Assembly (NCBI GenBank): GCA_044892505.1
Contig: CM097883.1
Location: forward strand, 119,412,001 to 119,476,000
DNA: 64,000 bases
From: Schmidtea nova
Lineage: Eukaryota
Direction: 5' to 3'
The position numbers were made by a program, and so were the translations under genes. Shown here piece by piece: positions 17,636 through 59,524 of the stretch. Every line of letters starts with the position of its first letter. Positions within the stretch are counted from its first letter, which is position 1. The notes below the pieces were generated by a model that ran no database searches, was not told where the DNA came from, and worked only from the letters and a program-made list of their open reading frames with translations.

Positions 17636-18537
17636 ATGGCTTCAAGAAGAAAATCTCATTTACCAAATCGAATTGATATTCAAGTCGATGATGATGACAA
17701 TATCATTGACGTTGGAGATTCAAGAACTACAACCAGTTCGTTAGACAAAATATTAAATTCAATTAAAAATGCCATTGAAGAATTGAATTGTTATGAGGAT
17801 AAACTTCGTTTAATTTCTGATATCCACCATGAACTCGATGAAATTAAAAATCAATATTCAGTAATTTTTTTAGTATTAATTTTATATTTATTTTTAAATT
17901 GTTTTCCTAAGAATTGCGAGGAATTACCATTGAACTTAATCACACCAAAAGAGGAAAAATCTACAAAATTTGAAAATAATGTGAGAACAAATAAAATATT
18001 AAAAAAACAAAATTGAAAATAATATACCATATTTAGATTCCACAGTTAGCTCCAGAAATGAACCGAAATCACGACTTTCAATTAAAGACAGCGGAAAATT
18101 TAATTTATGGAAACAATATTCTTAACACACTTTCTCCGTTAATATCAGCAAACTTCCCTTTCCAATGGAAATCCCAGCCCAGTCAAACAATTGCGAATGC
18201 ACTTTTAGCCCCGCAAACACAAAACATGGTATCAAATATCAACAATCCCGATTACAGATCGAACATCCTATTGAATTCAATTCCATCCAATAACCCATTC
18301 ATTAATGGATCAATGCAATCATCCACAGGTTTTCCATCGATAATCCCAACGAATCAAATGTCAGTTCTGAGTCACAATATTCTCAACAATTTCATATCAA
18401 GTATGAACAGCTCAATGATGCCTCTAGCTGGCAACTCACCGATCACCCCAAGCTACAACTCTTCATCTGTCTCATCAGATTACGCAGATTTCAATGAGCG
18501 GAAAAATAATCCCGCCGAAATCAATCATAACAACAAC

Positions 18538-18568
<31 letters not shown>

Positions 18569-29689: not shown

Positions 29690-30661
29690 AAAGTGAAAAC
29701 ATCAATGGTCAATCTTCAAGTCAAGATGGAAATCAAACATTTCGCCCTCAAGTCTCACAACAGCCAGCAAGAATGAATAATTATTCTCAATTAAGCTCAT
29801 CTAACTCTCATAATGCAAGTAGTCAAATGGAAGTCGTTAGGCGAATAGCAGCTACAATGCAACCACTATCATTTCCGATGCATTTAATCAATCAACAAAA
29901 TCAACCGTCAATTTCCATAATTTCAACTCCGTCGCAAGTAAATCGAAACTCTCAAATAGATTGTGCTCAAATGGTAAGAACGCCAACAAGTTCACAAGTC
30001 TCAGCCACTAACATTTGACAGGCTTTGTATATAATAAAACAGAATTTAATCTCACAAAGTGATAAATCCAAACAAGCTAACAATCATATACCAGATGCCT
30101 GCTGGTCTACAGTTTCCAATCTGTCTTTAATCATTTACAACTCAACGAATATTAGTCTATCATCAATAACAATAAATTCATCTCCAGTCGTTTCACAGAA
30201 TCAAAATGCTACAATTCTTCCAATGAGTAACGTCGACGTTCAGACATTAGATGCGATAAATCGATCGATTTCTCAGCAGAATCCAAAACCAATAAATTCA
30301 ATGCCAGTAAATTCCAATCTTTCTCTCATTCAAGCGGATTCCAAAGTCGCTCAACAGTTGAGTAATGGCTTTCAAAAGAAGTCTCCTCGCACACCGTCGG
30401 GTGTTAATTCACAGGGATACATGTCAATTGGTCAAACATAGGAAGCAACACAAATCAACATGAAAAATAGAAATAACATCAAATCTATCGTAATTTTTTC
30501 ACCAGCTCCATCGAAAATAAACTTAAACACCAACAACGATATTGATAATTCTCTATTAGAAGCTCCATTAAATTCAAAAGTCACAGGAACTCCAATATTA
30601 ACAAAATTTCTTTTCTTTTCGGAACAGAAAATCAGCCCCCCCATATCACCGCGGAGTTACA
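29690..30661 (+). other. Ser/Gln/Asn-rich coding-like fragments occupying the expected 5' LTR position of copy B
   Basis: ORFs 29773-30018, 30025-30441 and 30460-30693; ends in ...GAGTTACA just before the element leader; no recognisable domain. Confidence 0.35.
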
Positions 30662-30792
30662 ATGTTAGCATATTTTATTGTTATATTAAATAATATTATT
30701 ATATATTATTATTATTTATATCATTATTATTAAAATTAACGGGGCCGCCCAATCTTCCTAATTTTATCCTACGTCGCCGATCCTATAGGTCC

Positions 30793-31014
30793 TTATCAAT
30801 ATTTGTAAGGGTTTCCTCTTTCACATTCCACTTTAAACTAGTTCAGGACACGACCATATCAAAACTATCTACATTAATTTGCAAACGATGATTATACAAG
30901 GGACCGACATACATATCTTATAATGGCGCAATATTAAGGAATCAGGACTCACTTTTAAGTTTTGATATATGTTCAGATTCCTTGCTGTTCTGTCATGTAC
31001 CATTGTATGGCGGT
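30793..31014 (+). pseudogene. Ubiquitin-like domain (74 codons, one TGA at 30889) in frame with gag
   Basis: LSIFVRVSSFTFHFKLVQDTTISKLSTLICKR*LYKGPTYISYNGAILRNQDSLLSFDICSDSLLFCHVPLYGG aligns almost without gaps to ubiquitin. Confidence 0.85.
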
Positions 31015-31980
31015 GCACCATCAAGTATAAACAACGATAATGAATTCGATGATAAGAAGCCCAAACCTTTGCCAAAAAAGCCAAGAAATGTTCGAGGCGC
31101 TGCTTCTTCCGACAGTAACTGGAGACAAAATATTAATTGTCCGTTCTTTTTAGATGAGAACCAATCCCCATCTACTTGGTTGCTCACACTCGAAGCCCTG
31201 TTGGAAAGTTGCGGCGTTACATCTTCAAGAGATAAATTCTATAGAATATTATCTCTCATCCCACAGGAACATTTAGGTCGTCTTTCTGTTGTTATTCGCC
31301 GCACAACACAAAAAACCTTTTTAACTCCTTTTGAGGAACTCAGCACAGGACTGCTGGATTTATTTAAAGTTACTAAACAGGAAATATTCTCAAAATATTT
31401 CAAAGCCCAATCTTTAGGAAGTTGTAAGCCGACAGAATTTTTGCAGAAGGCTTTTACAAATCTCGAACAAATGCAAAATGGGACAGCACCGAACCAAAAT
31501 ATTCTACGCCAGTTCTTTTTAAGCGTACTTCCGACACATACACAACAAATCCTTGCTTTATCTTTTCCCGTAGATAAACACGAATTAGCAAACATGGCGG
31601 ACAAAATCGCAAGCCCGCCGATCCCATCATCAACAGAAAACGCCTTTCTTTGCGCCATTCGCGACCTTACAGATCGTATTTCACATTTGGAACGTCATAA
31701 ATCTCCGTCTTGAAATTCATCACTTTCCAATTCGTTTAACCGACGACGTTCCAAATCCCCGGCTTATTCAAACATTTGTTTTTATCACACCAAATATGGA
31801 ATGAAAGCAAATTGTTACAACATAGGATGTGGCTGGCGAAACAAATCAGCTACCCTCAAAATCATTGATAAGTGCATTTATCACGCACGATTTGGGGATA
31901 AAGCAAACAAATGCATTGTAAGTTGCAAATCCTACAATTCACCACAATCTTCTCCAAACAACAATCAAAAAGACTTGTAA
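31015..31980 (+). pseudogene. gag: gag with two tandem CxxH..C..C zinc knuckles; TGA at 31711
   Basis: Single frame from the UBL to TAA 31978-31980; CFYHTKYG..ANC...GC and CIYHARFG.KANKC...C. Confidence 0.88.
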
Positions 31981-34900
31981 TGCCATCACTCGTTGCGGTT
32001 GAAGTTGATGGCAAATTACCTCCTACACTCGATTTATTTTTAGTGAGAGCTGAATCCCCTTCTTTCAGTGTTGCTCCGAACTTTTGCAGTATTCTCGATT
32101 TTCTTGTTGACACAGGATCCAGTCTCTCCATTCTTCCTTTACAATATGAATCTCTTTGCAATGATTCCGTTTATACCTTGAAAGCCACCAACGGAACCAT
32201 GGTGAATACACACGGTTCTTTTTCAGCAAATTTCGTTCTTCCTTCTTTAAACAATCTTTTATATGAAAGTTCTGTGTCGCTGACGTTATCCATTCCATTC
32301 TTGGCTCAGACTTTTTGAGTTCACACAATTTGTTGGTCGATTGTCGTTCACGCCTTTTGAGAACACATTCGCACACAAATTCGTCTTTAGTCATTGACAC
32401 AAAAAAACTCAACATTTCCGACTCATCTGGCGTTTCTGTATCTACTGCCATTAAACCCAATTATCCAAAGATTGCTACAGACATTTTAAATAAATACACA
32501 TTTTCACAGACAATGCCTTTACGAAAGCAAGTCTCTGTAGCATCTTACTGCCATACTATCAACACCACAAACTCTCTTCCGGTACGTTGTAAAGTACGCC
32601 CTCTTTTGAACGAAAAACTAGATTTTGTTCGCTCCGAATTCGCTACTTTGTTGAACGAAGGCATTATAAAAAGATCTAAATCTCCATAGTCTTCACCACT
32701 TCATCTCGTACCAAAAAAAGATGGAACCTTTGGTAAACGACATTTTGTACAGACTTACTGAGGCCAAAATATTTTCAACTATCGACTTAATTAAGGCCTA
32801 TCATCAGATCCCTGTTAAAGAATCTGAAGTGGAAAAAACCCCTGTTTTAGCACCTATCGGACTTTTTGAGTACGTTTTCATGCCGTTTGGTCTTAGAAAT
32901 TCCGCTCAAACCTTTCAAAGACACATCGACCATATTTTAATGGATTTACCATTCGCAATTCCTTATATTGATAATATACTCATTGGTTCTAAGGACGCGG
33001 AAACACACAAGAAACATTTAGATGCAGTTCTTTGCGCACTTTCTTCCAATAACCTACAAATTAATTTAGATAAGTGTTTATTTTTTAAAGAAGAAGTCCA
33101 TTTTTAGGTCACATTATCTCGGGTCAAGGCGTCCGTCCACCATCTGACAGACTAGATACTGTATCTAAGTTTCCTCTTCCACAAACTGTTACTCAACTTC
33201 GGAGTTTTCTGGGAACAGTAAACTATTGCCACCGTTTTATTCCTAAATTTTCAGAAATTCTTTCACCTCTTTAAAGTTACTGTTCTAGACCAAAGAAATC
33301 TATAATTCCTTGGAACGATACTTCGTTGCTCGCTTTTGAGCATGCTAAAACAGCCCTTTCAAACATACAGACTTTGCATTATCTACGTGGAGATTTGCCT
33401 TTACGTTTAACCACAGACGCGTCAAACATAGCAATCGGTGCCGTTTTGCACCAGATAAACGGTTCCATCCCAGGGCCACTAGAATTTTATTCAAAGAAAC
33501 TTACCTCACCACAACAAAAATATTCAGCTTTTGACCGCGAACTTCTCGCTATTTTCCAGTCGGTTAAACATTTTAAGCATTTACTCGAGGGCCGTCTTTT
33601 TAGCATCCATACAGACCATAAGCCACTTGTTTATTTGTTCTCAATGAAAGACCCTTCTCCGAGGCAACAACGCTAGATTAGCTATATTAGCGAATTTTCT
33701 TGCCAAATATACCACATCGCCGGCAGTGATAACATTATAGCTGATTGCCTTTCACGAAATGTAAACGCAATTATCCACTGTCCTTTATTTTCTATCGACG
33801 AACTCCAAAATAATCCTCCAGATGCCATTGATATTTCGAAATTTGGCGCCAAACATAATCAAAGACAAAATTCACTACGACTCATCTCTTCCTGGCACTC
33901 TTCGCCCAATCTTGAATGACTCCTTGAGAAAACCGGCCTTTCTATCTGTCCACAACATACACCACCCAGGTTCCTCAAACACTTTTAATCTATTAAACAC
34001 GTGTGTAGTTTGGCCAAACATGAGACATGATGTTAAACTCTGGGTTGCACAATGCATAGGATGCCAACGTTTTAAAATAACTAAACACACTAAACCTCCT
34101 ATCATTCATTATCCAACTGGCAACCGTTTCGAAAACTTACACATTGACATCGTCGGCCCAATCCCAAGCGACTGTAATTTTTCTTACTTATTAACCATGA
34201 TCGACCGCAAGACTCGCTGGTTCGAAGTTATTCCTTTACGCACCATTTCTTCTAACTTTATCGCAACTTCGCTAATTCAAAATTGGATTTCACGATATGG
34301 AGTTTTTAAGTCAATCATCAGTGATCGCGGAACACAGTTTGAATCTAACTTATTTCAAGCTTTGACCGCTAAACTTTGGATACAACATCTTCGTACCATC
34401 GCATATCATCCACAAACAAATGATTTAGTCGAACGTTTCATCGTACTTTAAAAGCTTCTCTTGGAATTCTTTCTGAACAACAAGGTTGGACAAAGGTTCT
34501 ACCTTTCGTATTATTAGGTTGGCAAAATACACCTTCTAGGACTACAGGATCATCACCTGCTCAATTACTTTTCAGTACAAATACATCGTTACCCGGTCAA
34601 CTTGTCGACTTTGATAACTCTCCTACTTTGGAAGATCTCGCGATTGCTAGAGACCATTTTTTATCAATTGATACTAATCCTGAATTCTCTTCCGCGACCA
34701 TCTATAAGCCTTACATTCCAAAAACATTCGAAAATGCATCACACGTCTATATTAGAAATATAACTGGTGCAAGTTTAAAGCCAAGATATTCCGGACCTTA
34801 CAAGCTCGTCGAGATTAGAGAAAACAATGCGAAAGTGATTGTTAACGACTCTACACAAACATTTAACCTCTGCCGTCTTAAACCAGCTTTAGTTTTACTC

Positions 34901-35365
34901 GATGATGAACCTCCACCTGACAATTTCTCGACTCAAACCGATATAATCCAGAACTCTGACATAAACAATAAAGACCCTATCAATTCCACTGAGGACGATC
35001 TTTCCAACAACTCACCTTCATACCCGATTGTTCAAACATCAGACGCAGAAAACAAAACTACGGAAAACTTCGAATACGTACCGTTTATCCCAGAACCAAA
35101 TGACGTACTTCGTTTACCACCCATTTTGAAGAAAACAAATCAAACACCAAATAAACCAAAGTCCGTTACTTACAACAAATGGGTTCGTGTCCGTTCTATT
35201 AATCAAAAACCGGATTCACCAACCAGACTAATAAGAGTCTATTCAAATTATTTGCATCACTTGTCACCAATTTCTATTAGTCTTTTTCGGTTCCCTCAAT
35301 TTATTTCGAAATTCTTTCTCGGTTTCTTCCTTTACACTCGCAGCTTTTTCCCAGAATTTTTTTAG
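31970..35365 (+). pseudogene. pol: pol (PR-RT-RNaseH-IN), several frameshifts and stops plus an RT deletion near 32730
   Basis: Domain motifs across ORFs 31911-35365. Confidence 0.92.
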
Positions 35366-35629
35366 ACCTCTCAAAATACCATATGATTATACACTAAAAT
35401 TCTATATAGAGTATCTACATTATTGTATTTCAAAATGCGCTCCGCATCTTCCGACGGGGGCTGATGTAGTGGTCTAGAAGAATTGATATTAAAGCTTGTC
35501 TTAAAATATCAATGGAACATGGTCTGCTTCAAACTTCCACTCTATTCAGTGCTATTAGATTTTCAACAATTCATTTTAATGACGAATTAACTCCAAAAAC
35601 AATCAAATTGCTAATAATTGAAGCTATAG

Positions 35630-36400
35630 AATGGTCTTGAAATCATGTCTCAGAGTCCTAGCGTTACGCAGTAATGGATTACACAATGAAGCTGTTAAGC
35701 TTGCCTTATCAATTTGTCGATATCTTATTGGTCAACGTCCTCAAATCACTACACAATCTCGGCAAACCAAACCTATAGAGCCGACTACGCCGGCTAATCA
35801 GTCCTGTAGTTGTTGTCTGGATAATTTATCATCGATAGACTCTAAGTCAACTGCAATATCATCATTCAATTGCCTCCTTCAAAAATACTCCAACTGTACT
35901 GATATTACTGAAAATAGTAACGATTCTGAATGACAAACATGTGAGTTTTCTACCCCAGAATCCTTTATAAAATCGTCAGAAATTTCAACTACTGTTTTAA
36001 TGTCTTCCTCCACCGATTCATTAGTGTCTTCGCCACTTCCAACGAGTTATCCAAACATTAAAAATGTCACAATAAACTCAAATAAATCATTTTTTACCTC
36101 TACATGTTTTATGCAGTCGTGCTCGCCACTGTGGATGTCCTCGTCTAAACCTCCTTTACTTTCAACTAATGTGGAATATAGTCTCAATCCATCTGCATCG
36201 AAAATTTGCTCTCAAAGCGGTCCGAAATCCAATTTAATAGTAGAAACAACATTAGGACTACCAAACCGGCTTCCACAGTAACATGCGAAACAACATTCTC
36301 AATATTGACGCGTTTAATGTCGCCCTACTGAAAATGCAAGGCTGTGCAAAGAAAACTAGACCTGGCGTTATTAGCTTATGAGAAGGAAGAATCGAAGCTC
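35630..36400 (+). pseudogene. ZSWIM4/5/6-like fragment immediately after the PPT and TGTAGTG of copy B
   Basis: SCLRVLALRSNGLHNEAVKLALSICRYL versus recalled ZSWIM6 [28 protein letters not shown]; weaker LIVETTLGL match downstream. Confidence 0.55.
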
Positions 36401-36769
36401 ATCAGTTGCGAATATGTTCTACCATTGTTTCAGGAGAGTAATATGCGTCTGACTTTGTAAAGCCTGCTTTTATACTGCTGCTGAACACATGTTGCATGTG
36501 TTTTTATATTCTTGTATTGTTAAAGTAGAATATACCAATATTGGCTTTTATCTATCAATATTTGATATATGGATGAGCAAAGGGTTCTAAATATGATGAT
36601 AAATATAGGATGATACTCTCAGACAATAAAACAAATGTCGATAGCACAGTATTTTTTTAGTAATTTAAAATTTAAGGGGTTGCCCCACCAGTATCAGTAA
36701 TTGTCCGCCCATTGATTCATTCCTGGCGCCGGGCCCGAACACATCTCAAAGTGAAGCGAGATACTCGTA

Positions 36770-39379
36770 CCACTAAATGATCTAAACAAAAATAAAAGCA
36801 ACGTTAAAATCAACTGGAACAAACAACTAGAAAGTGTTTTTGAAAAAGCAAAAACAAATCTATCCAACACAAGTCTATTGAACTACCCCGACCCAAACTT
36901 AACATATATCCTCAACACTGATTGTTCTGGAAATGCAATGGGAGATACAATATACCAAGATAAACATAACGAAAAAAGACCCATTGCATTTTTCTCAAAA
37001 AAACTCAAAGCTCATCAAATGCGATATTCCACTTTTGACAAGGAACTGCTGGCGGTACACGACACAATAAAACACTTTCAATACCTCTTAGAAGGGAAAG
37101 AATTTGAAGTTTATACAGACCACAAACCCCTAGTAAACGCAATCAACATGAAATTGCCATTACCAAGACAAATACGGCAATTAAATTACATCTCACAATT
37201 TAATTGCGAAATCAAATAAATAGCAGGCGCAGCAAATATCTGTGCAGACATACTTTCACGAATCGAAACACAAACAAATGCAATCAGTATAATTCCGATA
37301 GTGAACCAAGAAGCTATGAAAAACAAACAAGAAATTACAATAAAAAAACTTCCCAAAATTGAACTCAATAGTGTTTAGAGAGATTGACGGAATCTGGTAC
37401 GACATATCCAATGAAAACATCAAAAGATTAATAGTACCCGAGAACCACAGAAACGAACTTATTCAACAGTTCCACAACATATACCACCCAGGAACAAAAG
37501 CCACATACGAACTCATACACACAAAAGTCGTATGGTCAAACATGAGAAAAGACATCAAAGAATTTGTCAACTCATGTTTAAATTGTCAGAAAAACAAAAT
37601 AACAAAAAGAATCAAAACACCAAAATTAAATTCCCAACATCCGAACCTTTCGAAACAGTCAACGTAGATCTAGTAGTACCACTTCCACCCAATAACAACT
37701 ACAAATACCAACTAACAATGATTGATCGGAAAACAAACTGGTTTGAAACAATACCAATCAAAGAAATCACCACTAAAACCGTCTGCGAAAACATAGAACT
37801 GAATTGGTTCGCAAGATACGGATGCCAAAAAACAATCATCAGCGACCAAGGCAGACAATTTGAATCCGATTTATTCAAAGGACTATGCACAAAATATAAA
37901 ATAAAAAAGTCAGAACAACATCATATAACCAACAGTCAAATGGCAAAGTAGAAAGACTTCACAGATCCTTAAAACAAGCGATACGGACTAAAGCTAATGA
38001 CAGAAACTGGTTAGAAAAACTGCCAGAAATACTAATCGGACAATGAAATAACCCATCTTCGATAAATAATAAAAGCCTTAGCCAACTAACTTTCGGACAT
38101 TCAACAAACCTCCCAAACTTAATAAAAAATATCGAAAACATTGGCAAAACATTCGAAGTCAAAGCACAAACAAAGAAAAACGAAATAAAAGAAGCTTTCG
38201 TAAATAGAAATGACAAACACAAACATTCAAAAACAAATCTCATCGTCGAGTCGGTATTAATAAAAAAACATTCACCAGCGGTTTCGAATCAAAATATGAA
38301 GGTCCCTACAAATTAATCAACCTGAATAAAAATGTGGGCACACTACTAATAAACAACAGGGAAATCAGAATCAATATTCGCAGATTAAAACTCTATCAAT
38401 ATAACAAACAAACAACACAAAACCAAATTAATAAAAAACCCCAACAACTTCCTAACAGAAATACAACAATTATACCAATACAAAACAAACGATACAGCGA
38501 CTGCCTCAAATTAAAACACCAACACACACAAGCAAAACACATGCACAAACAATGTTGGTTGTACAGTTTTTATTTTTTTTGTTAAATCGTTGTAAAACAA
38601 AAAACAAAGACAAAACAAAACAAATAAAATGGTTTTAGGTTAACTGTTAATGTTAAAATGTAAATTTTTAAAATTTTATTTGCATGTTAACCTCAGGTTC
38701 TAAAGGGGAAGTTGTGTAATGTTCACGATTTTGTGTGGTTATGCCCCTCCCCTTCGCTGTTAATTTTTATTTTTTATTTGTAATTAAATGTATAATTATT
38801 AAATTTCAAATTATGAATTTGAATAATTATAGTAAGCCAAATCACAAAATAAAAAAAATTGATTTTAAAATAATTTTATTATTTGTTCAAGAAACCAAGG
38901 AATATTAAAGAATATTAAATAACCCAAGAAAATATTAAAGAACAAGAGAATTTTAAAGAATATTAAAGAATATCAAAGAATCAAATATTAAAAAACCGAA
39001 GAATATTAAAGAATATTAAAAAACCCAAGAAAATATTAAAGAACCGAAGAATATTAAAGAATATTAAAGAACCAAATATTAAAGAACCAAAGAATATTAA
39101 AGAATATTAAAGAACCAAAGAACCAAATTAATCCGAACATTATTCCAAAACATTCCAATACCGTGAGTAGTCTTTGATTCGTTTTTCTTATTAAATAAAA
39201 TTTATAAACTAGTTAGTTTTGTTCGTTTGTTATCGTACACACACGCACCACATATATATCAAACACCCCAACTGTCCCAACAATAAGTTTTGGGAGACTC
39301 TTTTGGGCCCTTCAGTAATTTCCAGTACACAACAATATACCCATTGCATAACACAAACTAATAAAATACTACTATAATA
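36770..39379 (+). mobile_element. pol: Ty3/gypsy family 1, copy C: 5'-truncated (RNaseH-IN) plus 3' LTR 38713-39379
   Basis: LNTDCSG, YSTFDKELL, IISDQGRQF, closely parallel to copy D pol; PPT AAAGGGGAA at 38702-38710; LTR TG...TATAATA. Confidence 0.92.
38890..39125. repeat. AAGAATATTA-based minisatellite inside the copy C LTR
   Basis: Repeated AAAGAATATT and AAAGAACC units. Confidence 0.9.
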
Positions 39380-43458: not shown

Positions 43459-44279
43459 ATTTCATGTTTATTTTACGTTATTATTCGTTCAAGAGTTTGT
43501 AAGCGCCGTCATTACTATGGATGGTGCCTTCGCGGTCACCTGGCCCCCCCAGTTTTATTGTGGTTGATGATATTTATTTTTATCATTGTTATCATCTTAA
43601 TTATTTTTATTTAAAATTTGAATTTGGCTTACTATAGCAATTTGCTATAGTAAGCCAAATCACAAATAAAAGAATCAATAAATTTTATATAATTTCTCGT
43701 AATGGCTTTTACTAATTATTTATGATTACAATCAAACTAGATAGAAGAATAAACACTAATACTGAAAATTAAAAATCCCAATTACTATCAAAAAGAAAAT
43801 AGAAAAAGAGAATTCTACTATTTTACGATTTTTCAATTTTACAAGCTAAATTGTAAAGAAGCAAAGATTGCTGAAAGAAAATCCAAGCCAATTTTATTTA
43901 TACTGAAGATTTATCAAAGTTTATATAGTTTTCTAACTTACAATCTCCCTCGTCGACGGCTGCTAAATTGTAAAGAAGCTAAAAAAGAAAAACTTTTCAA
44001 GTAACCTTTCGTGGTTTTGCTATTTATCTGTTTATTAATAAATTTTGAGTAATTTAATAATTGTTCTGATTAATTTATTTGATTGCAACTTATATACTTT
44101 TTATATTTAATTGTTATTGTATTATCCTTGTAATCGCACTACATAGCACACACCCCGAGTGTCGGCACATAGTTAACGTCTGACTCTCTCGGGATCTACA
44201 ACTTTCTTACAACTCTTCTACACATTCACTCGTACAACAAATTAAAACTCAAATTGTAACAGCTCAAACAACTATAATA
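43459..44279 (+). repeat. 5' LTR of copy D (visible part)
   Basis: Matches 48920-49857 apart from a few substitutions and one 117-bp unit. Confidence 0.95.
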
Positions 44280-44281
44280 AC

Positions 44282-44293
44282 TGGTGTCAGAAG
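44282..44293 (+). promoter_or_regulatory. PBS TGGTGTCAGAAG (tRNA-Leu type)
   Basis: 2 nt after the LTR end. Confidence 0.88.
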
Positions 44294-44484
44294 GAAAAAA
44301 ACAGAACACTTAACTCAATTTTTTTTTTCAATCACTACGCCTTTTTAGAATAGCTATAGATAGAGCTATAAAGGATAGTTGACTCTGTTAGCCGAACACA
44401 GTAGGCTATATCCTTCAGTTAATCTCATTTTTTTTGCACATTTAAAAAAATAAAGAAACAAATCAACACTACACATAAAGACAA

Positions 44485-45543
44485 ATGGCATCGAACCAAC
44501 AAAATCTAACAAACAATCCCCAAACACACAACAACGAAACCATACCCAATCAACAAGAGAATACCAGCTATTTTTACACCCCTGAAAACCACCACACCAT
44601 AAATTCGATTATAAACCCCAAGGCAAACATTCCAAACTACTTTACAGATGAGAACGGCACACCCCAAAAATGGCTAGAGTTCTCAAAACTAACATTGACA
44701 CTGTCAGGAATCAAATCGACGAAAAGCTTATGCTCCCACATAATAGCCGCTCTTCCTAGCAATATTCTAAATGAAATTGCAGATCGAATCGACGAAATAG
44801 CGAATAGCGACGACCCATTTAACCTACTATACACAACCTTAGTAAATAGAAATAAGGTGAACAGGAGGGAGGTTTTGGAGTCTTGTCTAAAAGATATACA
44901 GCTTGGAAATGACAAACCAAGCGAATTTCTGCGAAATTTGAAAAGCAAACTGGAATTTTTGCAACCCAAAATCACAAGTGCGGGTCAAAATGATTTCGTG
45001 AAAGACCTATTCATGAGGGCAATGCCGCAAGAAATAAGACGCATCTTAGTGGCAAACGACTGCACAGACCTCGACAAAATAGCCGATATCGCGGACAAAA
45101 TTAATGACGAAATATTCCCAACAGTGTGTAGAACATACCGAAAACAACACCCGTGGGAAAACAAACAAGAAAACCGTCAAGAACGAGATAACCCAAACAA
45201 TGATACCAATCTACTGCTGAACTCGTTAATAAAAAAAGTTGACGAGGTCCTAACAGAAAACAAGAACCTCAGAAATGACTTACAATAGGCACAAGCGAGA
45301 GAAACCAAAAGAAACCAAATCAATCAAAACAACCGGTCAGAACAAAACCCTTACTTTAACCGTTACCAAAATAACCATAACAACCCAACAGAGCAAAAAC
45401 CAAATTTTAACCGATATAATAACCCAAACAACAGCTACATACAAAATGAAAATTGGTGTTATTTTCACAATAGATTTGGAGACAAGGCGTACAAGTGCAA
45501 CGCACCCTGCACTTTCAACAATAAAAAGCCGGAAAACATATAA
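44485..45543 (+). pseudogene. gag: gag, 352 codons with one in-frame TAG at 45286; single zinc knuckle WCYFHNRFGDKAYKCNAPC
   Basis: Frame continues past the TAG to TAA 45541; copy A has GAG at the same codon. Confidence 0.9.
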
Positions 45544-48500
45544 AGTCACCAAGGATCGCACCGACCATTGGTGACAGCCAAACATTCACGGTGCACAGCA
45601 ACGGTATTAACTTTCTCGTTGATACCGGTTCAATAATTTCCTTATTGCCGAACTACCTCTACAAAAACACAAAAACAGAAACCACAAGTTTATGTGCAGC
45701 AAACGGCAGCCCTATCAAAACATTAGGAAAACAAAACATCGACATTTCCGTCAATAATATAAAATACAAGTGGCATTTCACCATCGCAGAAGTGAAACAA
45801 GCCATATTAGGAGCAGATTTCCTCGCAAGATACAACTTACTAGTCGATTGTAAAAATGGGAAAATTATATCAAACAATTCAAATAACTCAACCACCAAAA
45901 GTAACCAATCAACAAAACAAACTAACTGCGACATTGGAGTGATAACAGCTCTACACGGCGAAATAAAAACGAATGAGCAGAAACTAAAATCAGAAAAAAA
46001 GGACGAACATATTCCTAATGAAATCATGAAACTGATACAAACAATGCCAAACATAACAAATAAACTACAAACAATTAGCGAAACTAAATGCATAACTGAA
46101 CACGCAATAATAAGCAATGGAAATCCTGTGCATGCAAAAGTCAGACAGTTGGACAAAAATAAACTCGAAATAACAAAGAAAATATTTGACGAATTATTAG
46201 AAAACCAAATCGTCAAACATTCTAATTCAAACTGGTCCTCAGCCCTCATGCTTAAAGAAAAAGCAAATGGTGAATGGCGTGCCTGTGGAGACTACAGAGC
46301 ACTGAACAGCATCACGACACCTGACAAATATCCAATTCCTATCATAAATGATATAATTAACCGATTCAACAAACCCAAACTCTTCAGCAAAATCGATTTG
46401 GAAAAAGCCTACCATCAAATACCCGTCAGAGCGGAAGACATAAAGAAAACAGCGATCATCACACCCTTAGGCCTCTATGAATACAACAGAATGCCTTTTG
46501 GTTTAAAAAACGCTGCGGCAACGTTTCAACGTTTTATGGACCAAATCCTGCGAAACCAACGAAATACAGTCGCTTACCTAGACGACATACTTATTGCGTC
46601 CACAACCAAATCGGAACACATCGAAAACATAAGAAATGTGTTGGAAATACTCAACAAACACGAACTAAAAATTAATACAAAAAAATGCCAATTTTTAAAA
46701 ACTGAAATACAATTCTTGGGTCACTTGTTGAATGAATCGGGAACAAGACCACTAGAAGACAAGATAAAAGCAATAAAAAACTATCCATTACCCAAAACAA
46801 CAAAAGAACTAAGACGATTCCTGGGGATGATCAACTTTTATCACAAATACATACCAAAATGTAGCGAAATGTTAGCCCCTCTCAACGAATTAAACAAAAT
46901 AAAGAGAAATATTAAAATAAATTGGAACGAAAATCTAATAATAGCATTTGAACAAGCAAAGGAAAATCTGAAAAACGCAAGCATCCTAAGCTACCCTAAT
47001 CAGGAATTACCATACATAGTCAACACAGATTGTTCAGGACTAGCAATGGGAGGTACCATATTCCAAGAGGAAAACAATGAAAAACGACCCATAGCATTCT
47101 TTTCAAAAAAATTGAAAACGCATCAAATGAGATACTCTACCTTCGACAGGGAGTTATTAGCGTTACACGACACGATCAAGCACTTTCAATACCTATTGGA
47201 AGGTAAAGAATTCGAGGTTTATACCGATCATAAACCCCTAATAAATGCAATGAATATGAGAAATCCTTCACCGAGACAAATACGACAATTGAATTATATT
47301 TCACAATTCAATTGTAAAATTAATTACATAGCAGGATCAGCTAATATAAGTGCAGACGCATTATCAAGAATCGAGACTGATATCAACGCACTAAACATAC
47401 CACCAATCATAGAGTTAGAAAATCTAAAAACTATACAAAAACAAAACATAACAGAGTCTCCGAGGATGAACTCGCTCAAATTGGAAGAAATAGACGGAAT
47501 CTGGTACGACACTTCAAACGACAATAATAAAAGAATCATTGTACCGCCTAAATTACGCGAACAGTACCTACAGAAATATCACAACCTTTACCACCCAGGA
47601 AACAAAGCCACATATGAACTTTTGCATACCAAAGTAATCTGGCCTTATATGAGAAGGGACGTAAAAACCTTCGTTAGAAACTGCCCACAGTGCCAAAAGA
47701 ACAAAATAACGAAAAAACAATTTAAAACAACGGTGGTACAATTTCCAAGTTCGGAACCTTTCGAAACAATACACCTCGACATAGTCGGACCTCTACCACC
47801 CAATAACAAACACAAGTATTTGTTAACAATAATAGATCGCAAAACAAACTGGTTTGAAGCCATACCCATAAAGGAAATATCCGCAGCAAAGATTTGCAAC
47901 AAATTAGAACTTAATTGGTTCGCACGGTATGGTTGCCCAAAAACAATAATCAGCGATCAAGGTAGACAATTTGAATCCGACATTTTTAAAGGACTGTGTA
48001 ATAAATATAACATTAAGAAAAACAGAACAACAGCGTATAACCCCCAATCAAACGGAAAAGTGGAAAGATTACACCGATCTATAAAACAAGCAATCAGAAC
48101 AAAAACGAACAATAACGATAACTGGTTGGGAAAATTACCAGAAATTTTGATAGGATTGCGCAACAACCCTTCAAGTTCAAACAACAAAAGTCCTAGCCAA
48201 TTGGTATTTGGACACAACACAAACCTGCCAAACTTAAAAGACGAAACAGAAAACAAGGTTGAGGCAAACTACGAATTCAACGAACCACAAATCACCAAAC
48301 TAAAAAACACCCTGAAAAACAAAAACAGTCAACAAACACAAAACCAAACCAGACTAATAATAGACAAAGTCTTAATAAAGAAACCTTTCACAAGTGGTTT
48401 CGAAACAAAATACGAAGGTCCATACAAATTACTAAATTTGTACAAAAACGTCGGCACAATCGTAAAAGACAACAAGTCAATTAAAATAAACATACGCCGA

Positions 48501-48686
48501 TTAAAACCATTTTATGAAAACAAACTAACACCATCCAACATTGACCACAACCAAAACCCTCCAGACAAAACCCCAACAAAACAAAAACACATCTCATTCA
48601 ACTCCAAAAACTCAATAAGACTATTCGACAAGGGCACAGTGAGCACACCCCTATACAAAAAACGATATAGCGAATGCCTCAAATAA
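45525..48686 (+). CDS. pol: pol polyprotein (PR-RT-RNaseH-IN), intact, in the -1 frame relative to gag
   Basis: FLVDTG; YLDDIL; TDCSG; HHCC and DDE integrase; YEGPY. Open from 45525, overlapping the gag end. Confidence 0.97.
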   Translation, partial: KAGKHIKSPRIAPTIGDSQTFTVHSNGINFLVDTGSIISLLPNYLYKNTKTETTSLCAANGSPIKTLGKQNIDISVNNIKYKWHFTIAEVKQAILGADFLARYNLLVDCKNGKIISNNSNNSTTKSNQSTKQTNCDIGVITALHGEIKTNEQKLKSEKKDEHIPNEIMKLIQTMPNITNKLQTISETKCITEHAIISNGNPVHAKVRQLDKNKLEITKKIFDELLENQIVKHSNSNWSSALMLKEKANGEWRACGDYRALNSITTPDKYPIPIINDIINRFNKPKLFSKIDLEKAYHQIPVRAEDIKKTAIITPLGLYEYNRMPFGLKNAAATFQRFMDQILRNQRNTVAYLDDILIASTTKSEHIENIRNVLEILNKHELKINTKKCQFLKTEIQFLGHLLNESGTRPLEDKIKAIKNYPLPKTTKELRRFLGMINFYHKYIPKCSEMLAPLNELNKIKRNIKINWNENLIIAFEQAKENLKNASILSYPNQELPYIVNTDCSGLAMGGTIFQEENNEKRPIAFFSKKLKTHQMRYSTFDRELLALHDTIKHFQYLLEGKEFEVYTDHKPLINAMNMRNPSPRQIRQLNYISQFNCKINYIAGSANISADALSRIETDINALNIPPIIELENLKTIQKQNITESPRMNSLKLEEIDGIWYDTSNDNNKRIIVPPKLREQYLQKYHNLYHPGNKATYELLHTKVIWPYMRRDVKTFVRNCPQCQKNKITKKQFKTTVVQFPSSEPFETIHLDIVGPLPPNNKHKYLLTIIDRKTNWFEAIPIKEISAAKICNKLELNWFARYGCPKTIISDQGRQFESDIFKGLCNKYNIKKNRTTAYNPQSNGKVERLHRSIKQAIRTKTNNNDNWLGKLPEILIGLRNNPSSSNNKSPSQLVFGHNTNLPNLKDETENKVEANYEFNEPQITKLKNTLKNKNSQQTQNQTRLIIDKVLIKKPFTSGFETKYEGPYKLLNLYKNVGTIVKDNKSIKINIRRLKPFYENKLTPSNIDHNQNPPDKTPTKQKHISFNSKNSIRLFDKGTVSTPLYKKRYSECLK

Positions 48687-48905
48687 AATACATAAACATA
48701 CACAAGCAAACACAGGCACAACATAGCTAAATGTACAGTTTTTAGTCTTTTGTAAATATGTAAATGTTATGGTTAAGACGTTATAAACAACAAAACAAAT
48801 ACAAAAACAAAACAAAATAAAACAAAACAACAAAAACAAGTTGTCAACATGGTTAATCTGTTAATTTTTATGTTCTTGTTAACCTCCGGTTTTAAAGGGG
48901 GAAGT

Positions 48906-49857
48906 TATGTGGATGTCTTATTTCATGTTTATTTCACGTTATTATTCGTTCAAGAGTTTGTAAGCGCCGTCATTACTATGGATGGTGCCTTCGCGGTCAC
49001 CTGGGCCCCCCAGTTTTATTGTGGTTGATGATATTTATTTTTATCATTGTTATCATCTTAATTATTTTTATTTAAAATTTGAATTTGGCTTACTATAGCA
49101 ATTTGCTATAGTAAGCCAAATCACAAATAAAAGAATCAATAAATTTTATATAATTTCTCGTAATGGCTTTTACTAATTATTTATGATTACAATCAAACTA
49201 GATAGAAGAATAAACACTAATACTGAAAATTAAAAATCCCAATTACTATCAAAAAGAAAATAGAAAAAGAGAATTCTACTATTTTACGATTTTTCAATTT
49301 TACAAGCTAAATTGTAAAGAAGCAAAGATTGCTGAAAGAAAATCCAAGCCAATTTTATTTATACAGAAGATTTATCAAAGTTTATACAGTTTTACAACTT
49401 ACAACCTCCCTGGTCAACGGCTGCTAAATTGTAAAGAAGCAAAGATTGCTGAAAGAAAATTCAAGCCAATTTTATTTATACTGAAGATTTATCAAAGTTT
49501 ATATAGTTTTCTAACTTACAATCTCCCTCGTCGACGGCTGCTAAATTGTAAAGAAGCTAAAAAAGAAAAACTTTTCAAGTAACCTTTCGTGGTTTTGCTA
49601 TTTATCTGTTTATTAATAAATTTTGAGTAATTTAATAATTGTTCTGATTAATTTATTTGATTGCAACTTATATACTTTTTATATTTAATTGCTATTGTAT
49701 TATCCTTGTAATCGCACTACATAGCACACACCCCGAGTGTCGGCACATAGTTAACGTCTGACTCTCTCGGGATCTACAACTTTCTTACAACTCTTCTACA
49801 CATTCACTCGTACAACAAATTAAAACTCAAATTGTAACAGCTCAAACAACTATAATA
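48906..49857 (+). repeat. 3' LTR of copy D, 952 bp, TAT...ATA termini
   Basis: Follows the PPT plus GT; identity with the 5' LTR ends at TATAATA. Confidence 0.93.
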
Positions 49858-51559
49858 TATCCATATATATCCATATATATCCTTATATAGGAGATTTTCT
49901 ACTCTAATAAGGAAAAACTTTTGATATAATATTATAATGACGCAATAATAATAATGTAGTGATATGAAAGTGACGAATGTTGATGACAATGGATTGCTGG
50001 CAGTGGTATTAAAGTGATGAGTTATTAATATGATAGTACCCGTGATAAAGTACAAAATAGATCACAGCTATTTTATACACCACATTAAGTCGTTTCCCGT
50101 TTAAATAACTTTTTCTCGGCATGAAGATGAGAACTGTATATCGAAATATTCACGCTATTATCTAGATGTCTTTTAAGGTAGAGCATATAATCAAGTGGAG
50201 TTTCGAATTGATAAACTCTCAGTGGTTGTATTATCTCGAATAGACACTAAAATATCGATGGGTGTAGTGGGTGATTTCTAAAACAGTTAGGCAATTGTCA
50301 ACTTTTGCAGTCATTTATTTTGAGTATATAGTGTTCTCAATTAATACAATGTGTTATTGTAGGTGTGGGTGTATATGTATATACTATTTGAGATGAATGC
50401 CCTATTGTCGTGATGGTAGGTGATGGTATATTGGGTGAAATAAGTAATACAGTGATGGATGTGAATGCTTGTGCAAATTCTGGATGTATGATGCTAACTA
50501 ACATAACTGTGTAGATTTTCTGTATGAATTGTTTGGGTTTATGTTGCTAATGAATGTTATTGAGTGATACGGTGTGGTGTGTGTATTGTTAAATGAATGG
50601 ATTTTTATGTGGTGTTATGTAGGGATGATGTTATTGAATGGTATGGGTGTATTGTTTTACAAATATGGCTGTGTGTGATATTAGGGGTTATTTTATAAAT
50701 AATATATATAATATATAAAGTAATTTTAAATTAAAATAATAATAATAATAATTTTTGTAACTCAAATTTACCACAAACAAGTGAAAATTTTATAATAAAA
50801 TTTTAAGTTTGGAATTTTTATATTATAAGTATGTAAATATATATGTAGAATAAGAATTTTTCCCTTAATTTGTATTATGGAATTAATAGATGAGATAAAT
50901 TTTTATATTACGATTATACTAATAATTTTATAATATTTCGAATTTATATTTCTATCAAAGTTATAAAATTTTAACTTTTACAATATTGAATTTTTAATTT
51001 TATTAATTCCTTTTACAGATTTTTTCAGTTGTTGACTTTATTTTCCAAACTATATAAACCCATTTTATACTTTATCAGGTATAAATTTTATACAAAATCA
51101 AAGGAGCAATTCCATGCTAAGATCCAATATAATAGTACACAAAATCTCAATGTAAAAAATTAAATTTTCATAAATTAAATAAGATAAAAATTCATATAAA
51201 AGACTAAATTTTTAATAATATTCTTCGTAAAAATTTTCCACCATATCGAGTTCTTTACCTAAAATTCATATAAAATCATAACCTTTCCATTAATAATTCA
51301 TCACTCCTTTACTTAGTTCATTCTTTAATAAATAGCTTTCGATTGAGGATTCTTTCATTATTTCTAATTTCACATATACTGGATCCAAATAAGATAAGAA
51401 AATATTTTTGTGAAGGCGAAGGTGAGTGCGAGTCGATTTTATTTAGTAAGATAATGCTTATTTTAGATTTCAAGACATGAGCTGGACTAATTGATGTTAT
51501 ATATTGCGAGTAACTTATGTAATATAATATAAATACTCTACTATACTATAATAAAAATC

Positions 51560-56114: not shown

Positions 56115-58960
56115 CTGGGGGTTGGTGGTTCCTATATAAATAACTAAGACAAAAAGACTCTTGTTTATAAAGTTTATTCAAATAACAAAATTTACCAATT
56201 ACAAATTACAAAATTGTCCACGACTTTAAAATCTTTCTATTACAAACTCTTTCAGATTTTGAGATCCTTTAAATTTTGTACAGATTTCAAAAGTTAGCAA
56301 TCTTTAAAAATATTTAACTTTTCTTGTTTAGCCAACTGGCTTATTTTAAACGCTCTTTAGGATTTGTACCTAAGAGAGCTATTGCGCTAAGTTTAGAAAT
56401 TTTATGGCAATTTTACTGAATTGCCTTTCTCTTTTATATTAAAATTGGGCATGCAAATTACAACTGCTGACATTTATATTATTTTGACATTTTTCAAATG
56501 TATAATACATTGCATGCATAAATAATATTGAATATGTAACCTTTCAATGACGAGAAAATTTATAATTAATACGTTAAAAAAAAATTTATAAAATAAATTC
56601 TTATAACCAATTTTAATTAATTATAATTAAAAGTATTTTATACTTTACCGAAATTGTCGTAAATCCGATTAAATTTCCCAATTCTTCTATTGTAAATAAT
56701 TATTTCCTGGCTTGCTAATGGAAAAAGTATATACAAAATTTTCAACTATACATTCCTAGCTTGACATTTATAAGCAGATTTTTCAATATCAGTGCTTTCT
56801 ATCGACACCGGTTCATCACTCACATTTCGGAGAATTTCCAACTGATCATTGCCGATGATTCTGGAGATAACTGGCCGCTCATCATAATGTCAAATGTCAT
56901 ATATATTCCACAAATGTTTTCTCATTGCAAGTCTTTCGAGAAATACTTTCATTTAACAAACTGATTTGCACAAGTTCCTATTTTTTGTATGACTATAAAA
57001 TATACATTCTCTATTCCTCATGTCGACATTATTTCTTAAATGTCAATATCGATAATAATAATTAACTACGGTATAAAAAATAAAAATTAAATAAATACGG
57101 TAACTATATTTATAAAAATAAAATAAATACGCTAACTGCATTCCTCAACTATACTTCATAAAAATAAAATAAAATTTAATATCAGAATATAAAGTTTAAT
57201 AGTTACGAGAATATAAAGTTCAATGTATGAGTCACAAATAGTTAAATGATGATCACAATGAATTGTTCTTGAATTGATTGATCTTTTGGGTTTGGTAGTT
57301 GAAGCTGACAGACAATGATGTTGATCACAAAGATTGATAAAGTGAATTAGGGTTTATAGTTATTTTTCAAAAGGGATTTCGGATGATTTGATTAAAATGA
57401 TTGAAACGGACGATTGGGGCGGACAATTGATGCTTTGAATGATTGAGATTGAGATGATTTGATCGGGATTATTTAGATAGATATTGCGACTGATGATTGG
57501 AACGGATAATTGATTTTTTGGGATTGAGATGCTTGGGACTTGATTGGGGTTTATTTTTCTAGGTAGATATTTATTCTGTATCTATTGTTGCCGATATAAT
57601 AATACTTATTGACTTTGAATGTTCTTATGAGTCTTCCCTCGTCATCCAACACAGGTATCCTCCTATACACTAAACACGAGGGCCATCCATACAGAAATGG
57701 CCATACGTAGCTTCCACTTAAAACTACGATTTTATCCTTTCTTTCACATTCGATTTCAGTGAGACTCAATTCACGTCTCTGTCCCTATTCGACTAAGCTG
57801 ATTTCATTTTTGCCCAATGGGGGCACTCGAAGAGTGTAAGTCTCTTCCACCTTCACTCTAACTTTATTTTCTGTTATTGTATTTATATTGGGAAATTATC
57901 TCTTTCCTTTCTCAAATTGGGCAATTAAAATCATTCCCATTGTCGAATTATTATTGCTATTCTACATATAATAGCTTTTGTCGGAGAGCATAATTTTCGA
58001 CTACACTTTCCCTTTCAAGGTGGATTTCCGCTTCAATAGTCATTTACAGCCAATTAGCGTCGATCGTTTTTCTCAAAAGGAATTCAACGAGAATTTTATA
58101 TGGTAATTCGAAACGAAATTTCAGTTCTCTCCGTGATTGGAGTTTTTCATAGATCTTCGATCGAGTTTTAACATAATGTTTCAGTATTTCATCCCATAAC
58201 CATTGTAATCATGCTTACTCTTGTGGAAACTTGGTCAAAAGTTTCCGTTAGATCAAAGGCAGGTGTGGTGACATAATTAATATGTAAATAAATATTACAT
58301 TTATAATATTTATATTTATATTAAATATATATTTTATTATTAAAAAAGAAAAAAAACTTTTGTTTGTATTATGTAAATATTTGAAAAATAAACGACATCT
58401 TGATTTAGTTAATTTTGTTAATTTAGTTAATTAGTTAATTTAGTTAATCATTCTTTATGTTTTCCCTAAATGATTATAAAGTATTTTGTGAAGATAACAA
58501 CCTTAACAATAAAGTGGAAAATTGCAATGATAATCATGAATTAAATCCCGACAATATTAATAAAGACATAAAATACAGCATTTTGACAAGTCTTCTCCTA
58601 AACTTTGAATTTCATACTGAAATGCGAGTTAAATTGCTAGCTTTGATAAATTCGAACCAATAACTGAAGATATTCTTCCAAAGGAAACTTGCTCAAAAAT
58701 TACTGATTTGGAATTCATTTGCAAAGATTCCTTATTTGAAGCATTAATTCATGCAATTGTTACAAATAGATCTAATAAATGATGAACAGACCGATATGTT
58801 GAGCAGCCATGCTGAGTTTTTCACCAATTATAACGAGAGGTGCGATAATTATAACAAAAGCAGTAGTTCATGCCTAAGTACAGCTACCTTATTCAATGAG
58901 ATCACACAAAGGGTACCCCCTTTGACATTCATTTGCAGTGATATTAAATATCAAATCGGA

Positions 58961-59122
58961 AAACATCCAAAGATAATTTCCCAGCCTGCTGGCCGCTATT
59001 AAACACAACGATTTAGAAAAACTCAATGTCCAACTGTTGGGCGAATAATATACTCCCTAACGATACATGGTCGGACTAACGAGGGAAGAATCGAGGCAAA
59101 CAAGAATATGATGGTAAGAGTC
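58961..59122 (+). pseudogene. RPS5: 40S ribosomal protein S5 (uS7) fragment abutting the PBS
   Basis: KHPKIISQPAGRY*TQRFRKTQCPTVGRIIYSLTIHGRTN versus recalled [40 protein letters not shown]. Confidence 0.8.
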
Positions 59123-59132
59123 AATACCACAA

Positions 59133-59150
59133 TGGTGTCAGAAGTAGGAT
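59133..59150 (+). promoter_or_regulatory. PBS TGGTGTCAGAAGTAGGAT (17/18 match to the tRNA-Leu CAA 3' end)
   Basis: 1 nt after ...ACCACA; recalled tRNA complement TGGTGTCAGAAGTGGGAT. Confidence 0.9.
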
Positions 59151-59311
59151 GTGATCTATATTATATATTTATATTTAAAAAATCATATATTTATATTTTT
59201 TCACAAATACTAATCACCACATTTTCCCCCTCCCCAGTGCGTGTCATTTTACCTCCCCCGTTACTGAAAGAGCCTCATTATTTTCCTGTCCTCGCCGAGG
59301 CTACAGCGCAA

Positions 59312-59524
59312 ATGCGAGACTTCGCACGCAACCTATCCCACACATTTCCACTTTCTCTAACCTTGCACGATTTAGAACGCTTTATTTGCTCTATTTGGCA
59401 CTTGAAATTAAACACTTTCTATTTCTCACACATAGGTTTTAGCGTAGTGAACGATGGGGAACCATTAGCCAAGGTATTACCGCCGGGAGGAGTTGTATAC
59501 GTGACATTTAGATTACGTGGAGGC
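59312..59524 (+). CDS. Ubiquitin-like domain (71 aa, Met start, ends RLRGG) fused to Gag
   Basis: MRDFARNLSHTFPL...TLHDLERFI...FYFSHIG..VNDGEPL...VYVTFRLRGG followed directly by the Gag Met at 59525. Confidence 0.85.

Follow-up and report, generated by a model that had tools for sequence, protein, structure and literature searches.

Ty3/gypsy elements of Schmidtea nova with exchangeable host mRNA cassettes in their LTRs and a ubiquitin-like domain ahead of Gag

The Ty3/gypsy elements described here were identified from a window of Schmidtea nova DNA (the whole stretch analysed, 64,000 nucleotides) and from its source genome (1.25 Gb, AT-rich). Sequence comparison indicates that the 3′ half of their LTR is an exchangeable cassette of spliced host mRNA, present in both LTRs, while a ubiquitin-like domain (UBL) ending in di-Gly is located ahead of Gag. 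As a tentative reading, to which we would give nearly even chances, the cassette may be a rotating host 5′ end that furnishes a 5′UTR, a start codon and a signal peptide, with the UBL acting as a host-cut release linker which enables such swaps; the Gag precursor of one family (family A) would then lie in the ER membrane and be released by a deubiquitinase.

Three families were studied, namely A (the window copy), E (window 58-64 kb) and F (found in the genome). Close copies of the window element are numerous, with at least 198 matches obtained from 119 of 6276 candidates scored. Sister elements are of the Ty3/gypsy type, 6-7.5 kb in length, and possess its hallmarks, these being paired LTRs, a tRNA primer-binding site (PBS), a polypurine tract and target-site duplication. 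Six elements have LTRs that match each other at 99.5-100% identity, a seventh has 97.8%, and 5-bp target duplications are present in four. The pol order protease-RT-RNase H-integrase was found in two sister pols, and a DTG motif is present. The first-pass annotation had proposed looking for intact paralogues and their start codon; unbroken sisters do exist, and in the unbroken family A copies ORF1 (917-928 codons) starts inside the 5′ LTR. It has ~130-195 codons in the LTR, followed by the PBS (translated as MVSE), a 324-codon N/Q/S-rich linker, a hydrophobic helix, the UBL with its GG, and Gag. In unbroken sister copies the distance from the ORF1 start to the UBL is ~240-510 codons. At residue ~216 of ORF1 in L073 and family F, a second conserved GG motif, PVPLSGG, occurs after a hydrophobic stretch upstream of the UBL, its GG being kept in 24/24 copies; it may be what is left of a former UBL tail, or an additional cleavage site. 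The family A LTRs (L063, L065, L066, L079), judged by their target duplications, end in AA and not the usual CA. Head-to-tail tandem arrays of whole elements sharing LTRs were also observed, with units of 5.8 and 6.9 kb (L071-L072, L067, L061-L062; C3:1967178-1984943). Four loci (L182, L184, L199, L220) are internally deleted, having the PBS or cassette joined directly to pol pieces, and a further two (L075, L187) have two PBS-like sites in series, that is, a cassette stacked on a cassette.

The PBS corresponds to the 3′ terminus of an intron-bearing tRNA which occurs in tandem repeats and whose anticodon is read as CAA (ARAGORN gave no assignment); tRNA-Asp was rejected as the primer. L219 (C2:300.51-300.60 Mb and beyond) contains an extensive tandem array, repeating every 0.9 kb, of tRNA genes (Gly, Gln and intron-bearing CAA), and matches to the tRNA 3′ end number 808 genome-wide. 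Gag was modelled as a helical protein of two lobes (core pLDDT >90), the matches of its fold search being filled by the UBL. DUF7041 was detected below the cut-off in family A and above it in families E and F, while the nearest Atlas clusters are DUF7041 proteins of ~270 aa (score 0.85, a lead only).

The family A copy of the window, on the forward strand, begins with a decayed N/Q/S-rich ORF1 linker (29694..30652, +) just past the would-be PBS position. Its blastn match to a sister element begins at 29710, 18 nt past the PBS of the sister, and neither a 5′ LTR nor a PBS was found upstream of 29694. The linker is followed by a hydrophobic, transmembrane-like segment (30653..30735, +), which is split across two frames here and has a hydropathy of 2.4-2.45 in unbroken sisters. 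Next is the UBL ending in PLYGG (30793..31014, +), the fold of which was modelled from a sister copy. As the first-pass annotation had noticed, this is a domain of ubiquitin length in the gag frame: its 74 residues (SIFVR...PLYGG) can be read with one TGA at 30889, and its C-terminal 35 residues give a gap-free alignment to ubiquitin 42-76 with precisely the nine identities which that annotation had listed, the ubiquitin unit being taken from the polyubiquitin P0047. Gag itself (31015..31980, +) has a putative DUF7041-type helical core, two Cys/His knuckles and one internal stop at 31711. It is followed by a broken pol (31981..35365, +; protease, RT, RNase H and integrase, domain order from sisters) and by the polypurine tract and recognisable start of the 3′ LTR (35456..35648, +), with TGTAGTGG at 35465. 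Past this point a coding-like stretch (LALRSNG...LALSIC; 35650-36300, +), presumably ZSWIM-like, matches no other LTR and is possibly another cassette.

The TGA at 30889 does lie opposite a Trp of copy E, as had been remarked, but the codon at this column in 31 of 32 family A copies is a sense codon other than Trp, which identifies the TGA from the alignment as damage private to the window copy. Similarly, no ATG precedes the UBL because the 5′ LTR, where the ORF1 start lies, was lost from this copy. The earlier view of an N-terminal UBL with a mutated or spliced-in start was mistaken, as the UBL occupies an internal position and ORF1 begins within the LTR; a spliced-in start codon is moreover ruled out by cassette junctions in mid-exon.

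Copy E, also in the window, has a 5′ LTR (58264..59131, +) whose cassette is decayed, looks coding and is in frame with Gag (sisters give an RRM match), a PBS (59133..59150, +) which reads MVSEVG in the UBL-Gag frame, and a UBL ending in RLRGG (59309..59524, +). The window further contains an intron-bearing host gene with an HMG box (17600-19218, +; Pfam E 1.3e-14), which we take to be Sox-like, and low-complexity tandem repeats at 2207-2824, 19053-19719 and 38889-39162.

Taken alone, the window UBL has a Pfam ubiquitin match below the cut-off (E=0.016), and a PDB sequence search with the window protein alone gave no ubiquitin match. Adding relatives makes the match secure: a profile of six UBL-Gag proteins, none of them close to ubiquitin, places four polyubiquitins among its best 150 matches. 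The AlphaFold2 model of a family A sister UBL has a pLDDT of 93.7, the alignment behind it including two near-ubiquitin rows, and it matches known structures with a TM of 0.85 (E 9.5e-7) and a Z of 13.7 (rmsd 1.6 over 77 residues). The family A UBL, of ~75 residues, is thus modelled as a beta-grasp ubiquitin fold. It is identical to ubiquitin at 18 of 76 positions and shows high identity to no single modifier.

The di-Gly is kept in 32/32 family A and 25/25 family F copies. Shared changes in the UBL, given as synonymous/non-synonymous, are 9/2 in family A and 5/2 in family F, with 23/0 in the family A capsid core; the 32 family A copies were chosen by protein score, which lowers their non-synonymous counts. 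Among lower-ranked family A copies the UBL has 15/16 (ratio 0.33, singletons 0.86), and in the old family E it has 19/34 (ratio 0.54), with the GG damaged in 4-5 of 30 copies. The first-pass annotation had seen long-term selection on the fold and di-Gly. Purifying selection on the UBL and GG and their wide occurrence are borne out, but a single unbroken ancient origin is not: UBL identity does not follow Gag identity (Mantel rho 0.09, 179/2000 permutations as high), and near-true ubiquitin occurs in two relatives (identical at 55 and 57 of 76 residues), so that the UBL has been refreshed from true ubiquitin at least once.

The suggestion that the fusion is a family trait was correct, in that 41 of 151 Gag rows (38 being predicted proteins of assemblies) possess a hydrophobic-x-GG tail 9-48 residues before the capsid; for 29 of these rows the alignment to ubiquitin reaches z >= 3. 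Several Gag rows have host-like pieces upstream of the UBL, including histone H2A, 5′-nucleotidase, cohesin SA, Rrp44/CNOT1 and RING; these sequences are protein predictions that lack DNA context, and some may be gene-model chimeras. PBS-like read-through motifs are also present in Gag-row proteins. A Gag-core tree, from which P0121 (too short) and four polyubiquitins were omitted and in which P0114 was not counted as UBL-bearing, places 37 of 40 UBL rows in one half (support 56), with the other three as a separate clade and family 1 nested among UBL rows. Because of this split, the nesting of family 1, and a gathering profile which itself favoured UBL-bearing matches, the tree cannot show a single UBL origin.

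The family 1 element of the window (43459..49860, +, right end approximate; PBS near 44280, gag ATG 44485) serves as a UBL-negative control. It has the same PBS with stops around it and, in agreement with the first-pass annotation, a Gag without a UBL, which has its own ATG. An inverted family-1-like copy of the gag region (1-973, -; 84-88%) and a family-1-like pol copy (36738-38585, +; 71-77%) are also present in the window. Among 39 loci chosen by PBS alone, 15 had Gag; eight of these are family-1-like without a UBL and the other seven all have UBL-GG. The LTR frame reaches the PBS in six of the seven, three being in the UBL frame and three not. In two of the loci outside the first three, the UBL frame is open over a long distance and has a Met of its own, which counts against a start in the LTR.

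The cassettes are most varied in family A, for which 72 loci were found, 68 of them anchorable and 65 with a PBS. The 3′ halves of their LTRs fall into NOMO (24), acid phosphatase (18) and PCMT (9) classes, classes of 3, 3 and 2, and singletons. The cassettes of family F are PP2A-A, SAM50, a winged helix of MCM8 and another three without a name; family E has an RRM piece, perhaps of PTB/hnRNP-L, and another family a nuclear-receptor zinc finger. L109 may have a tetraspanin piece, for which Pfam gave no match. Three donors were traced, and relative to the host gene the cassettes are 94-100% identical, without introns and joined in mid-exon. The NOMO cassette corresponds to host -41 to +397 (94-99% identical) and ends inside exon 1. 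The PP2A-A cassette consists of blocks of 51, 343 and 57 nt (98-99% identical) from which two GT-AG introns are gone, and the SAM50 cassette joins two exons minus a 79-nt intron, its second block being 100% identical. All three traced cassettes include the host 5′UTR and ATG. No host acid-phosphatase gene was present among 17 candidate stretches, and of 49 genome matches to PCMT the eight inspected were all LTR copies, hence these two cassettes are named by Pfam only.

All three traced 5′ junctions lie at the element AATAAA or up to ~20 nt after it, and no shared spliced leader was seen at them. At the 3′ junction, words shared with an older cassette were found in two cases, CGCTCCT (7 letters, PP2A-A) and GGAAATGAT (9 letters). 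Partial, intron-less host mRNA with short shared words at the junctions is the signature of an LTR-mediated retrocopy, and the junction pattern is what template switching in first-strand reverse transcription would leave. We infer that capture may occur in the first step of reverse transcription, with RT departing from the tRNA primer, copying the 8-20 nt LTR end and then jumping to a co-packaged host mRNA. It would run toward the 5′ end of this mRNA and land on the element RNA beside its AATAAA, and Gag would still be made only by those capture products that are in frame.

The reading frame of the cassettes is consistent with such a filter. Ahead of the PBS, the frame that stays open longest is that of Gag in 61/65 family A, 25/25 family F and 23/30 family E rows; these row sets include four duplicates in family E and, in family F, three units from a single tandem array. 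Where the host frame of a junction class could be identified, it agrees with that of Gag in all 10 cases, for which the chance is 1 in ~59,000 if they are independent, although the classes are partly nested and so not fully independent. Against the host gene, the NOMO cassette has 11 synonymous and 44 non-synonymous changes and one stop, a ratio of 1.03 (21/24 copies), and differs in this from the UBL (9/2) and capsid (23/0) of the family (Fisher p=0.0005). Codon drift ratios of the cassettes are 0.9-1.7 across sets. These comparisons indicate that the frame of the cassette is selected while its content drifts neutrally.

Translation of ORF1 would probably start at the borrowed host ATG, behind the borrowed host 5′UTR, and a host deubiquitinase would cut after the GG to free a constant Gag with a fixed N-terminus, whatever the LTR carries. 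Against a borrowed start, the cassettes are not always 5′ ends, examples being the MCM8 C-terminal domain and the RRM. In family A there are further features. A hydrophobic cassette start is found in 8/8 family A classes versus 0/6 family F classes (p=0.0003), the Pfam-named PCMT class included. The family A linker has 15 N-glycosylation sequons versus 7.3 in shuffles, and basic residues follow the membrane-like helix. Because of the hydrophobic starts, the sequons and these basic residues, a type I ER membrane precursor is predicted for family A, with a signal-peptide-like start, a sequon-rich linker and a membrane-like helix, and UBL-Gag would be cytosolic. The borrowed cassette is perhaps also a self-like disguise against small-RNA silencing.

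A distinctly possible alternative accepts the same anatomy and differs only in why captures spread, holding that they are a tolerated by-product from which the element gains nothing. The LTR end would need few bases, RT would switch often, and the UBL would render in-frame junk harmless. The neutral drift of the cassette codons, the serial replacement of captures by one another, and the constant part of the family A LTR end, only ~8 nt, all agree with this. However, the restriction of hydrophobic starts to family A fits a requirement, one that packaging of secretory mRNAs at the ER side could mimic, and the host 5′UTR and ATG in each traced cassette likewise favour a use for the borrowed sequence.

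It is unlikely that Gag synthesis instead begins at an ATG in the PBS or downstream of it, which would leave the LTR frame untranslated and put the UBL close to the N-terminus, like that of a ubiquitin-ribosomal protein fusion. The PBS can indeed be read as ATG GTG in families A, E and F, family A has 10 further Met codons between PBS and UBL, which count against a start at the borrowed ATG, and P0004, with a Met directly at the UBL, counts against an LTR start. P0004, P0006, P0034 and P0087 have annotated starts at or near such sites, and L208 and L214 have their LTR frame off. What a start at the PBS leaves unexplained is the 10/10 in-frame junction classes, the open Gag frames (at least 90 codons in 48/65 family A and 24/25 family F copies, versus 0-2 copies in other frames), and the confinement of signal-like starts to the family with the membrane-like helix.

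Equally improbable is that the UBL is left uncut by a host enzyme, staying as a folding, membrane-binding or proteasome-binding module, or that the element protease cuts nearby. Matches of the fold to ubiquitin, SUMO, ISG15 and FUBI are tied, with uncut UBL domains matching as well as modifiers, the UBLs of the elements are only ~24% identical to one another, and the family A tail VPLYGG lacks the arginines of LRLRGG, which speaks against a deubiquitinase cut. The 41 Gag rows nevertheless keep the GG at its short distance from the capsid and have the tail of a cleavable precursor, namely the C-terminal di-Gly with L/I/V/M at position -4 in 40/41, R/K at position -5 in 33/41, and Pro never after the GG. 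In these rows the GG is followed by S, A, M, N, T, G, Q, V or D and never by P, R, K, H, L, F, W, Y or I, so neither by a basic nor by a bulky hydrophobic residue.

The proposal that cassettes come from host transcripts splicing into an intron-inserted element, or are assembly artefacts, would suit cassettes without introns that begin near host 5′ ends, but it is largely refuted and very improbable, as all three traced 3′ junctions lie inside exons, dispersed copies flanked by target duplications contain the cassette in each of their LTRs, and both NOMO junctions occur as loose ends in contigs of four runs (one study, possibly source material), runs which cover introns and are thus uninformative on expression.

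If release of Gag from behind a borrowed host start is true, it represents a new mode of Gag expression that relies on a deubiquitinase of the host, and it would also disperse the 5′ ends of host genes across the genome in many copies. Likely effects would be small-RNA targeting of the donor genes and consequences for gene annotation and read mapping, and the cassettes would record host mRNAs packaged in particles. Neither a UBL-Gag retrotransposon nor a host LTR cassette read into Gag was found in a search of article listings and the beginnings of abstracts, or in PMC5131818, PMC6431247, PMC13517609 and PMC11410931, with repeat-library entries and subscription journals outside its scope; the elements are thus Ty3/gypsy members with an expression design not found in print by this search.

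In common with Ty3/gypsy elements having a DUF7041-type Gag, they possess LTRs, a tRNA PBS, a polypurine tract, gag followed by PR-RT-RH-IN, and a 5-bp duplication. Unlike the usual Ty3/gypsy elements, they begin ORF1 within the LTR and continue it through the PBS, have UBL-GG ahead of Gag, devote half of the LTR to exchangeable host mRNA and, in family A, have LTRs ending in AA rather than CA. In ubiquitin-ribosomal protein and FUBI-eS30 precursors, UBL-GG is likewise followed by a passenger protein, but the UBL is at the N-terminus in these and internal in the elements. Murine leukaemia virus glycosylated Gag results from an upstream in-frame start that gives a membrane-bound, glycosylated Gag precursor; its leader is fixed and viral, with no host cassette and no UBL, and the topology predicted for the family A precursor is the opposite. 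Ubiquitin insertions in pestiviruses are cut by host proteases.

In cytopathic pestiviruses, ubiquitin or a UBL is inserted at the NS2/NS3 junction of the polyprotein by recombination with host RNA, and such insertions are sporadic and in single strains (PMC13517609), whereas the UBL of the elements is lasting, diverged, present in many families and placed behind a variable N-terminus. The Burro giant planarian gypsy elements also have host-like domains, but they exceed 30 kb, with Gag N-terminal and the extra domains internal (PMC6431247), compared with only 6-7.5 kb for the elements studied. The closest parallel to the cassettes themselves is LTR-mediated retroposition, in which template switching captures partial intron-less host mRNA at short shared words, sometimes from serial genes (Tan et al., 2016; PMC5131818). 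The partial intron-less mRNA and short shared words are the same in both. In the captures described there, part of the internal ORFs is replaced and the loci behave as non-autonomous elements, whereas here internal ORFs are not replaced, the capture lies inside both LTRs and in the Gag frame, and gag and pol are open.
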